Shown here: one piece after another, positions 10,943-12,728 of the stretch | Layout: every line of letters starts with the position of its first letter | Position numbering within the stretch: position 1 is the first letter of the stretch | Assembly (NCBI GenBank): GCA_028700115.1 | Contig: JAQVTI010000004.1 | Location: 1 to 32,000 of the forward strand | Reading direction: 5' to 3' | Origin: Candidatus Iainarchaeum sp. | GTDB lineage: Archaea; Iainarchaeota; Iainarchaeia; Iainarchaeales; CSSED10-239 | Length of the DNA stretch: 32,000 bases | Notes under the pieces: model-generated | What the model saw: the letters and a program-made list of their open reading frames with translations, nothing else | What the model was told of the DNA's origin: nothing | Database searches by the model: none | Program-made: the position numbers and the translations under genes

Positions 10943-10987
10943 CCTAAAAAACTACTTTATATATATTTTGGTTTATTATTTTATTAT
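10943..10987. repeat. 45-bp perfect direct repeat, copy 1 (contains a TATA-box-like TTTATATATA); probable promoter of the 11010 gene
   Basis: CCTAAAAAACTACTTTATATATATTTTGGTTTATTATTTTATTAT is identical to 12684-12728. It ends 22 nt upstream of the ATG at 11010. Confidence 0.95.
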
Positions 10988-11009
10988 TGATTTAAATTAA
11001 ATAAGTGTT

Positions 11010-12677
11010 ATGAATAAAAAAATAATTTTTATAATATTATTTCTATTTATTGTATTTAATAATGTGGTTTTTTCAGAAAGGGATTTAAATTGTCAATATC
11101 AACATAATATTTTAATTAATTCAAATAAAGAAATTGTCCCTGTTTCTGTAGAAAATGATCAAGAGATTAATTATATAACTTATGAAATTTTAAATGGAAA
11201 TCAAGCCCCTATATTATTTAATAATCTTAATGATTTTAATGTGTGTATTTCCTTTAAAGTTAGAATATATGTTGATGATAGATTTATGGCAAGTGATTAT
11301 GATGAATCTGATAGAGAAATTTGTTTGTTGCCAGGTATTAATACTTATGATTTTTCACATTGGGCTGTTTTTTCTGAATCTAAATATGTGGAAGTATCTA
11401 ATTTAATTTATATAGAAAATGATTTTGTTCATTTTAAATCTATAGATAAAAATGAATATCAAACTGTATGTGATTTATGTTTAGATAAAGTTTGTTTAAA
11501 TGATGGATTTAATTGTTCTAATAATAATGAATGTGGTTCTGGATTTTGTGTACAAGGAATTTGTTCTAATATGGTAGATGGTAATTGTTATAATAATAAT
11601 TGTAATTGTTCTGAAAATGAAATTCAATTTAAAAATAAAATGTGTGTTTTAAAACATTCTGTAGAAAATGGTTCTATACCTATAACTGGACAAAAAGAAG
11701 AATGTATTTCTAATTATATTGATAATAATATTTGTGTAGTTCCTATTGGGGGTAATTGTAATTCTGATATAGATTGTGGTGATAATTATTGTGTAAGAAA
11801 TATCTGTAATTCTACTTTTGATTCATGTTATAAAAATGATTGTAATTGTTTGAATAATGAATTTCAATATAAAAATAAATGTATTCAAAAATATACTCTT
11901 GAAAATGGTTTTTATCCAGAAACTAATAACCCTTTAGAATGTATTTCTGGGAATATAAATCCTGAAACTGGGTTGTGTGATTTGAATGAATTTGATAAAT
12001 TAAAAAAAAGAAATAATACTTTAATATTGATTATTTTTATAATTTTAATTTTATTTATTTTTTATTTTATTTACTCTAAAAAGAATAAATTTAATTTATT
12101 AAAAGAAAAAAATAAGGGTAAGGAAATTGATTTTAATATAGAAAAAGAAAAAACTAATAGACTTGAAAAAGAAATTCAAAAAATTAATAGAACTATAGAG
12201 TTTAATATTAATGAAGAAAATAAACTTAATAAAAAAATTAAAAAAATTAAATCTAAAAAGAATAAAACAAAAAAAGAAGAATTAGAATTAAAAAAACATA
12301 TTTATAGTTATGAAAAATTAAATAAACATCTTTCTGATTTGAACCAAGATTTATTAAAAAAGAAAGAGTGTCTAAAAGCTGAAAGAAATAAAATTTATAA
12401 AAATGTATATGGTTGGGATGTTAAAATTAATGATTATGGTTATGAAATATTTGTAAATAGTAGACAATTAGTACATCTTTATGTTTATCGTAAATATATT
12501 GGAGATATAAAACCTAATTGTGAAATACATCATATTGATGGTAACAAATTAAATAATAATAAAAATAATTTAATTCAATTAACAAAATCACAACATAAAT
12601 TAATTTCTCATAGATGTATAAAAGATAGGGCTAGTGGTATTAAAGAATTAAAAAGAATAGGTGTAGTCATAGATTAA
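11010..12677 (+). CDS. membrane protein: signal peptide, two tandem 9-Cys modules, TM helix, K/E-rich coiled coil, C-terminal HNH_3-type endonuclease domain
   Basis: N-terminal MNKKIIFIILFLFIVFNNVVFS. Duplicated modules with C-x5-C-x4-C-x4-C-x6/7-C-x4-C-x-C spacing. TM segment TLILIIFIILILFIFYFIY is followed by a Lys-rich stretch. HNH block VHLYVYRKYIGDIKPNCEIHHIDGNKLNNNKNNLIQLTKSQHKLISH. Confidence 0.75.
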   Translation: MNKKIIFIILFLFIVFNNVVFSERDLNCQYQHNILINSNKEIVPVSVENDQEINYITYEILNGNQAPILFNNLNDFNVCISFKVRIYVDDRFMASDYDESDREICLLPGINTYDFSHWAVFSESKYVEVSNLIYIENDFVHFKSIDKNEYQTVCDLCLDKVCLNDGFNCSNNNECGSGFCVQGICSNMVDGNCYNNNCNCSENEIQFKNKMCVLKHSVENGSIPITGQKEECISNYIDNNICVVPIGGNCNSDIDCGDNYCVRNICNSTFDSCYKNDCNCLNNEFQYKNKCIQKYTLENGFYPETNNPLECISGNINPETGLCDLNEFDKLKKRNNTLILIIFIILILFIFYFIYSKKNKFNLLKEKNKGKEIDFNIEKEKTNRLEKEIQKINRTIEFNINEENKLNKKIKKIKSKKNKTKKEELELKKHIYSYEKLNKHLSDLNQDLLKKKECLKAERNKIYKNVYGWDVKINDYGYEIFVNSRQLVHLYVYRKYIGDIKPNCEIHHIDGNKLNNNKNNLIQLTKSQHKLISHRCIKDRASGIKELKRIGVVID

Positions 12678-12683
12678 TTTTCC

Positions 12684-12728
12684 CCTAAAAAACTACTTTA
12701 TATATATTTTGGTTTATTATTTTATTAT
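12684..12728. repeat. 45-bp perfect direct repeat, copy 2; probable promoter region of smc
   Basis: Identical to 10943-10987, offset 1741 bp. It starts 7 nt after the stop of the HNH-domain gene and ends 82 nt upstream of the smc ATG at 12811. Confidence 0.95.

Follow-up and report, generated by a model that had tools for sequence, protein, structure and literature searches.

How could a single gene be added beside a core gene of a very small genome, gain a promoter and leave its neighbor undisturbed? This question is raised by a locus in 32,000 nt of DNA from Candidatus Iainarchaeum sp. (positions 1 to 32,000 of contig JAQVTI010000004.1, assembly GCA_028700115.1), which is the whole stretch that was analyzed and is called the window below. 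In the window, a gene for a 555-aa membrane protein with an HNH_3 domain stands directly upstream of smc, and two perfect direct copies of a 45-bp sequence bracket it. The host is a DPANN archaeon. DPANN archaea have tiny genomes with few recognizable mobile elements and show heavy gene turnover in defense islands, and the way in which they gain genes is poorly understood. We propose, with a probability of about 0.6, that the HNH gene arrived as a promoterless cassette of one open reading frame (ORF), inserted at the smc core promoter with duplication of 45 bp of the target. The original prediction, made from the letters of the window, had read the locus as a cassette insertion with a duplicated promoter, and this reading is largely borne out by the accessory status of the gene, the variability of the site and a parallel case around the closest homolog of the gene, found on a contig designated L034.

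The repeat pair

The 45-mer CCTAAAAAACTACTTTATATATATTTTGGTTTATTATTTTATTAT occurs twice on the plus strand of the window at an offset of 1741 bp, and the two copies are identical at 45 of 45 positions (Table 1). The first copy ends 22 nt before the ATG of the HNH gene, and the second starts 6 nt past the stop codon of that gene and ends 82 nt before the ATG of smc. No further match with three or fewer mismatches was found in the window, none of 100 dinucleotide shuffles of the window contained a match, and no third copy was found at the same threshold in the whole host genome (964,791 bp, 22.4% G+C). The 60 nt flanking the two copies are unrelated to each other, their identities of 30% and 45% being those of an AT-rich background. 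On reading the 45-mer, no integron attC site, transposon inverted repeat or Xer/dif site was apparent, with no dedicated search run for them.

The arrangement of repeat, gene and repeat is also present in a second public assembly (GCA_028691725.1, contig JAQUYT010000026.1), whose sequence is identical to the window save for four mismatches at the end of that contig itself. Moreover, Logan contigs built at k=31 from the two runs SRR22315503 and SRR22315505 break at window position 10972, and as 10958–12713 and 10943–12713, which are the break points predicted for a true 45-bp repeat in a de Bruijn graph. The host genome contains several exact repeats of 127 bp, one of which ends exactly at a contig end, and this suggests that its assembly used a k of about 127, longer than the repeat. 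The second assembly, the Logan break points and the probable k together argue against an assembly artifact, and the exact two-copy repeat of the original prediction is confirmed.

Identity of the repeat with the smc promoter region

The sequence upstream of smc was compared among seven related genomes (G001, G002, G004, G006, G007, G010 and G013), whose SMC proteins are 50–61% identical. All seven contain a single copy of the block TTTA(A/T)ATATATTTTGGT.TA upstream of smc, about 50–77 nt before the ATG, and the part that is invariant among them is TTTAWATATATTTTGGT.TA. Both copies in the window align with this block. Because the block is conserved before smc in the seven relatives, the 45-mer is identified as the native core promoter of smc, composed of a purine-rich stretch, a TATA box and a conserved downstream segment.

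The TATA box, TTTATATA, lies at 10956–10963 in the first copy and at 12697–12704 in the second. Across the host genome, TTTAWATA boxes peak at 25–34 nt (leaderless genes) and at 55–64 nt before start codons. The box of the first copy precedes the ATG of the HNH gene by 54 nt, adjoining the latter peak, and would therefore be at a normal promoter distance. Because the leaderless peak lies at 25–34 nt, transcription probably starts about 28–32 nt downstream of where the TATA box begins, a point that corresponds to the 3′ end of the repeat. A conserved TATA box at a working distance, by which an archaeal core promoter is recognized, is thus present, and initiation is predicted from the sequence. 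The archaeal-style TATA promoter noticed at the outset therefore holds, with the addition that it is the native promoter of smc.

The exact 17-nt core of the block was found in the host genome in the two repeat copies only. In G004, a congener of the host, the 35-nt block is unique to smc, and the 17-nt core additionally occurs upstream of a tRNA gene; the core by itself may thus be described as a strong-promoter-like sequence. The suspicion that the 45-mer is a common promoter consensus, which might stand before many genes, is ruled out, because the host genome has the 45-mer at two sites only, and its 17-nt core at the same two.

The smc leader downstream of the second copy is, at 82 nt, about 35–65 nt longer than the leaders of the relatives, which measure roughly 17–45 nt from the equivalent point. 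A TGATTA motif, which is located 3–4 nt before the smc ATG in the relatives, is found about 35 nt upstream of it here, and the leader contains a second TATA-like box (12739–12746), whose distance from the ATG, about 72 nt, is the ancestral one. A third, degenerate copy of the repeat in the leader was considered, but the match is unconvincing (20/32 identity by eye with the TATA boxes aligned).

The gene between the copies

The 555-aa protein consists, in this order, of a signal peptide, a Cys-rich ectodomain whose two repeats stem from an internal duplication of 80 residues, a transmembrane helix, a Lys-rich coiled coil and the C-terminal HNH_3 domain (residues 487–530). The HNH motif, EIHHIDGNKLNNNKNNL...H in the pattern HH...N...N...H, is intact, and the domain matches HNH endonuclease families of phages. 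The gene is the only one with an HNH_3 domain in the host genome. No relatives of the HNH region were found among PDB sequences, and no DNA-binding module of homing endonucleases is recognizable in the protein.

A search of 40 related genomes, including six congeners (83–94% complete), did not find the gene in 39 of them, namely all six congeners and 33 of the remaining 34 genomes; the single homolog, in G024, is distant and full-length. The gene thus appears, from its distribution, to be an accessory one. The family itself is rare: three matches were found among 5.8 billion clustered proteins, a profile search of a large database added one partial protein, and a further large-database search then gave nothing. 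About 12 distant full-length members exist in DPANN genomes, and the closest named homolog is from Candidatus Nanoarchaeia. These relatives are placed in unrelated contexts, and none adjoins smc. The idea that the gene was inserted between the copies is strengthened by its accessory status and by its position at a site that varies within the genus. The label “homing-type” given to the nuclease is not supported, because its sole basis is the HNH_3 domain, and the protein is membrane-anchored, has no such DNA-binding module and has relatives that do not stand beside smc.

Parallel cases in the HNH family

The closest homolog, P0002, is encoded on contig L034, which comes from an unrelated ENA metagenome. 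It has a bracketing 40-nt direct repeat of its own (102–141 and 2271–2310, 39/40 identical), which is unrelated to the 45-mer of the window. The L034 repeat is not a promoter. It corresponds to codons 3–16 of the NUDIX gene located downstream, whose ATG is supplied by the end of the cassette, and the upstream copy keeps what is apparently the original ATG and then meets a stop codon at the cassette edge. Since the repeat is NUDIX coding sequence, it is not explicable as promoter copying, and the existence of a second bracketed homolog with its own 40-nt repeat favors insertion with target duplication. When the 400 nt upstream of each of 17 family members was compared by local alignment with the 400 nt downstream, only the window (104) and L034 (82) scored above the maximum of 38 in the control (n=272). 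In 14 more distant members of the family, which came from genome and metagenome scans, no flanking repeats were detected.

The close sub-clade has three complete members, and two of these carry bracketing repeats of 40–45 nt, in unrelated contexts. In contig L033, a 73-nt, 86%-identical copy of the 5′ segment of a NUDIX gene reaches to 21 nt before the start codon of the HNH gene, and the partner of this copy is found 1 kb upstream. In L230, a 3′ fragment of tRNA-Ser is found 110 nt upstream of the HNH-family gene, with the intact tRNA 1.9 kb upstream; this is a classical tRNA-end duplication. The close sub-clade thus occupies four different gene contexts with duplicated local sequence at the left border in each. 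Where this duplication encloses the gene, as it does in two of the four, the repeat measures 40 or 45 nt.

Two further arrangements were observed in the family. The tRNA-Ser gene of L230 (2458–2542) and the copy of about 30 nt of its 3′ end (4390–4419) bracket a pair of transporter-type genes, EamA and TauE, directly upstream of the HNH-family member, which is partial. Around a distant member, in L039, a G-rich motif of 16–18 nt, GGGGGATACTTTCTTATT, is found four times (2672–2690, 5315–5332, 5348–5364 and 5922–5937).

The site: a variable island next to smc

From smc onward, the window is collinear with the congener G004 (505461 down to 484203), and all of the window sequence upstream of smc is non-syntenic with the surroundings of smc in that genome. 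In the relatives, SerRS is located upstream of smc, at times followed by HIT or by one or two other small genes. In the host, SerRS and HIT lie on another contig (C23) and are followed by genes without homologs in G004. The first 12.7 kb of the window contain a Schlafen/AlbA_2 gene, a Type I restriction-modification operon, a DpnI-like gene, the 297-aa gene that forms the left flank, and the HNH gene. These comparisons suggest that an ancestral SerRS(-HIT)-smc adjacency was opened by a variable, defense-type island, in which the HNH gene would be the last, abutting the smc promoter.

For the 297-aa gene, no Pfam match was found, so that the earlier label HEPN is unconfirmed; it has no homolog in G004 and no homology with the gene at the same place in G001. 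The search for an empty site among the relatives, which the original prediction had proposed, consequently gave a divided answer: a single promoter copy precedes smc in seven of them, but these are other species, and none presents a clean empty site.

No integrase or transposase domain was found among the Pfam matches of the window ORFs from 1 to 19 kb. The host genome contains one tyrosine recombinase, on a different contig (C40), and one reverse transcriptase, adjoining an Avd-like gene.

Table 1. Features of the region between the left flank and smc (window coordinates; A, X and D denote left flank, repeat and smc side).
Feature	Position	Strand	Basis
Left flank (A): 297-aa gene of unknown family, divergent from the cassette	9993..10886	-	ORF
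Spacer of 56 nt between the start of the divergent 297-aa gene and repeat copy 1	10887..10942	.	sequence
Repeat copy 1 (X): duplicate of the smc core promoter, before the HNH gene	10943..10987	+	alignment, TATA-to-ATG spacing
Leader of the putative cassette, 22 nt, without a TATA box of its own	10988..11009	+	sequence
Putatively inserted accessory gene, 555 aa, HNH_3 membrane protein	11010..12677	+	domain matches, not found in 39/40 relatives
Cassette 3′ end, 6 nt (TTTTCC), T-run directly after the stop codon	12678..12683	+	sequence
Repeat copy 2 (X): smc core promoter in its native position	12684..12728	+	alignment with relatives
smc leader (D), 82 nt	12729..12810	+	sequence, comparison with relatives
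smc, core gene	12811..16059	+	first gene of the block collinear with G004

Several observations concern the surroundings of the locus. Among congeners (L021–L030), the interval between SerRS and the smc promoter contains nothing, HIT, a 309-aa gene on the minus strand, or genes of 109–193 aa, and it appears to be a hot spot of gene turnover in this group. A 128-aa gene and the DpnI-like gene (PF06044, 142 aa) at 9158–9975 are tightly coupled to the end of hsdR, and the former has a 60%-identical homolog beside the Type I system of G004. The Avd-like gene, which encodes a four-helix bundle, is followed by the reverse transcriptase (RVT_1, E=1.8e-29) in both the host (C33:851–2556) and G004 (26897–28695), and the pair looks like a diversity-generating retroelement in each of the two congeners. 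Farther downstream in the window, about eight tandem copies of a 20-nt unit, TTTCTTTTTTATAAATTATT, with 95% matches occupy the intergenic positions 22052–22210, upstream of a gene starting at 22288.

Other bracketing repeats in the genus

A census was made of unique exact direct-repeat pairs of at least 27 bp, 0.3–5 kb apart and with unrelated flanks. Their density is about 7 per Mb in the host genome and likewise in G004. Assorted loci totaling 0.82 Mb yielded none, the only repeats seen there being multi-copy REP-like elements (two loci). Pairs that bracket one or two genes include three on host contig C38 (35, 53 and 38 bp), one on C29 (27 bp) and one in G004 (99 bp).

The last of these is a perfect repeat (28589–28687 and 30138–30236; loci L189 and L190) with unrelated flanks, which brackets a single 421-aa gene located directly after the reverse transcriptase gene; the ortholog in the host (C23:17885–19144) is at a different locus, beside SerRS. 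Another repeated element, on host contig C24, is a G+C-rich sequence, …GCCCTGCTTGAAAA.AGATATATT…, followed by a TATA box. It is present in two copies in the host (C24:13739–13798 and 14474–14533) and in three copies in G004 (188140–189975), at the same syntenic locus.

Proposed course of events

We therefore consider it somewhat more probable than not that an ancestral arrangement A-X-D, with D standing for smc, became A-X-Y-X-D by entry of the cassette Y at the edge of the variable defense-gene island. The cassette would consist of the 22-nt leader, the HNH_3 gene and the 6 nt that follow it, and the duplicated target would begin about 13 nt before the TATA box and reach approximately to the transcription start. 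As a result, the newcomer would have gained a full copy of the smc promoter and smc would have retained its own. No integrase or transposase would be involved. The duplication might have arisen by fill-in of a widely staggered break, by single-crossover entry of a circularized fragment carrying X, or by templated repair. The identity of the copies means that the event is recent or that the copies have been held alike by conversion, and their presence would permit loss or amplification of the 1741-bp unit by recombination between them.

A number of points weigh against this proposal. The repeat ends at a functional promoter boundary, which exceeds the expectation for a random staggered break and calls for selection or another mechanism. 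The precise span is probably the product of selection, because only insertions that left the smc promoter intact and gave the newcomer one would persist. The composition of the HNH gene (G+C 0.20; 0.068 at third codon positions, GC3) is like that of neighboring genes in the window; foreign base composition of the insert was looked for, and none was seen. No clean empty site is available, and the left flank is unconserved, so there is no A-X-D junction to compare; the SMC proteins of the relatives are only about 60% identical, and the single-copy promoter is the sole comparison. In L033 and L230, the duplicated segment has its partner 1–1.9 kb upstream, not downstream. In the census, the bracketed 447-aa ATPase gene on C38 and the bracketed 140-aa gene on C24 are syntenic in G004, and both genomes conserve the C24 repeat as a multi-copy regulatory element; an arrangement of repeat, gene and repeat is thus not in every case the scar left by insertion of the gene between. 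Finally, k=31 graphs look alike for a chromosomal repeat-gene-repeat and for an empty site accompanied by a 1741-bp circle.

Alternative explanations

One possibility is that the HNH gene already stood in the island and that nothing but a copy of the 45-bp smc promoter was added later, 1.7 kb upstream of the original, through templated repair, template switching or ectopic conversion, and replaced or supplemented the promoter of the gene. This would explain why the repeat takes in no more than the functional promoter block and breaks off near the predicted start of transcription; other repeat pairs in the genus likewise consist of duplicated regulatory sequence, the genes that they surround being syntenic in G004, and in L033 the 73-nt copy of a segment from 1 kb upstream abuts the HNH gene. 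The strongest argument to the contrary is L034, where the repeat is coding at both cassette ends and hence a scar, not a regulatory copy. In addition, the copies in the window abut the ORF tightly on both sides, as a target duplication would lead one to expect, and no homology that could have seeded conversion exists around them. We regard such copying without gene insertion as unlikely.

Also unlikely is a history in which the 1741-bp unit (X and Y) enters and leaves the chromosome as a mini-circle by homologous recombination within X, the chromosomal form being one state of an equilibrium. A single crossover of a circle carrying X would yield exactly A-X-Y-X-D, and mini-circles formed by PeSL cassettes of T4-type phages are documented (PMC2839356). 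The Logan contig L185 is 1771 nt long, that is, 1741 + 30, the length expected of a 1741-bp cycle at k=31, and the branch from X to smc was not kept in its run. However, the k=31 graph fits a purely chromosomal repeat equally, and another contig, L186, has both branches. Moreover, X is found at one site of the genome only and thus offers no family of landing sites, and the wholly different repeat of L034 would require each circle to have first picked up local sequence.

The HNH_3 protein might instead have mobilized its own gene by nicking or cutting the target, repair of the staggered break then duplicating 40–45 nt; action of this kind has been proposed for free-standing homing endonuclease genes and for restriction-modification units. 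Its HNH motif is intact and its domain resembles those of phage endonucleases; the gene is the immediate upstream neighbor of a highly conserved gene, a position that it shares with free-standing homing genes; bracketing repeats of this length are present in two of three complete sub-clade members, to be set against about 7 such pairs per Mb of genome; and double-strand breakage by the cargo has been proposed by Furuta et al. to lie behind long target duplication. Nevertheless, the host genome has this footprint around cassettes of different cargo as well, so that a host-level process suffices, and the protein is membrane-anchored, with a large ectodomain and without a recognizable sequence-specific DNA-binding module. 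The absence of flanking repeats from the 14 more distant members, and the lack of linkage of the relatives to smc, also speak against self-mobilization, which we find improbable.

An assembly artifact in this metagenome-assembled genome, or att sites of a recombinase acting in trans, for which 45 bp would be a length typical of archaeal integrases, is very improbable, given the agreement of two assemblies and a repeat shorter than the likely k of 127 on the one hand and, on the other, repeat lengths that vary from case to case (27–99 bp), the location of the only tyrosine recombinase on another contig, the unrelated sequence in L034 and the nature of X, which is a conserved promoter and not a tRNA or a site with dyad symmetry.

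Significance of the locus

If the insertion with target duplication is accepted, the locus represents a fresh footprint of gene gain, in which one ORF has been added beside the core gene smc, and smc would be undisturbed because its whole core promoter was duplicated. It would also illustrate how an incoming gene without a promoter can be expressed immediately. With a second independent case in the same gene family and similar footprints in two genomes, the phenomenon is open to a systematic census and to experiment, and its greater interest would be as one instance of a recurrent, recombinase-free gain of genes in this DPANN genus. Along this line, we put forward a tentative generalization, doubtful as it still is. 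DPANN archaea of this genus might acquire genes by a recombinase-free route, as short and often promoterless ORF cassettes whose entry duplicates 27 to more than 100 bp of the target; at a core promoter, the duplication would end at the transcription start, so that expression of the newcomer would begin immediately, without harm to the resident gene. The HNH_3 membrane-nuclease family would then be a recurrent passenger of the process or possibly, through widely staggered nicking, its agent.

Comparison with known systems

Integrases and transposons, too, leave inserted DNA flanked by direct repeats of the target, known as attL and attR in the former case and as target-site duplications in the latter. 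Target duplications of transposons are usually shorter than about 15 bp, and at the present locus there is no integrase or transposase, no terminal inverted repeat and no tRNA target, so the pair does not qualify as att sites. The free-standing HNH homing genes of phages (I-HmuI, Mob-type, HNH_3) resemble the inserted gene in their HNH_3 domain and in their intergenic position beside a conserved gene. They differ from it in that the present protein has a signal peptide, a Cys-rich ectodomain, a transmembrane helix and a coiled coil and is without a DNA-binding module, and homing normally leaves no target duplication.

The PeSL promoter/terminator cassettes and mini-circles of T4-type phages (Arbiol et al. 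2010; PMC2839356) are similar in that near-identical, promoter-bearing repeats flank single non-essential ORFs in hyperplastic regions. By analogy, the geometry at smc would allow excision of a small circle and would give the ORF a ready-made promoter, and the PeSL mini-circles may be regarded as the nearest functional analog of the circle-entry route mentioned above. The phage cassettes are, however, multi-copy, genome-wide and equipped with a stem-loop terminator, and the present repeat is a unique, two-copy host promoter without any stem-loop family, which sets it apart from that class.

The closest precedent is the insertion of restriction-modification units with long target duplication, attributed to Nobusato et al. 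(2000) in the citation by Furuta, Abe and Kobayashi (2010; PMC2853133). According to the latter, the bacterial duplications are unique repeats of more than 30 bp and up to about 420 bp, with 46–47 bp in Haemophilus influenzae and Thermus thermophilus; mobility genes are absent, the repeat is single-copy at the empty site, the target often overlaps a gene end, and double-strand breaks made by the nuclease cargo have been linked to the duplication (PMC2853133). The locus described here agrees with them in having direct repeats of more than 30 bp that closely flank the insert (45 bp, at 22 and 6 nt from the ORF), in the low copy number of the repeat (two) and the lack of mobile-element genes in or next to the insert, and in a short insert that encodes a nuclease-type defense gene. 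As for the empty site, the promoter block is single-copy in the seven relatives that lack the gene, which are other species in which the left flank is unconserved. The insert is not a restriction-modification unit, being one HNH_3 gene without a methyltransferase; the host is an archaeon, and no archaeal case is reported to have passed the filters of the survey by Furuta et al. (PMC2853133); and the target is a full core promoter at smc and the 5′ end of a gene in L034. What is new here is, therefore, the archaeal host, the cargo of a single nuclease gene outside restriction-modification and a duplicated target that coincides with a core promoter, and these features extend insertion with long target duplication from bacterial restriction-modification units to archaea and to a different kind of nuclease cargo.

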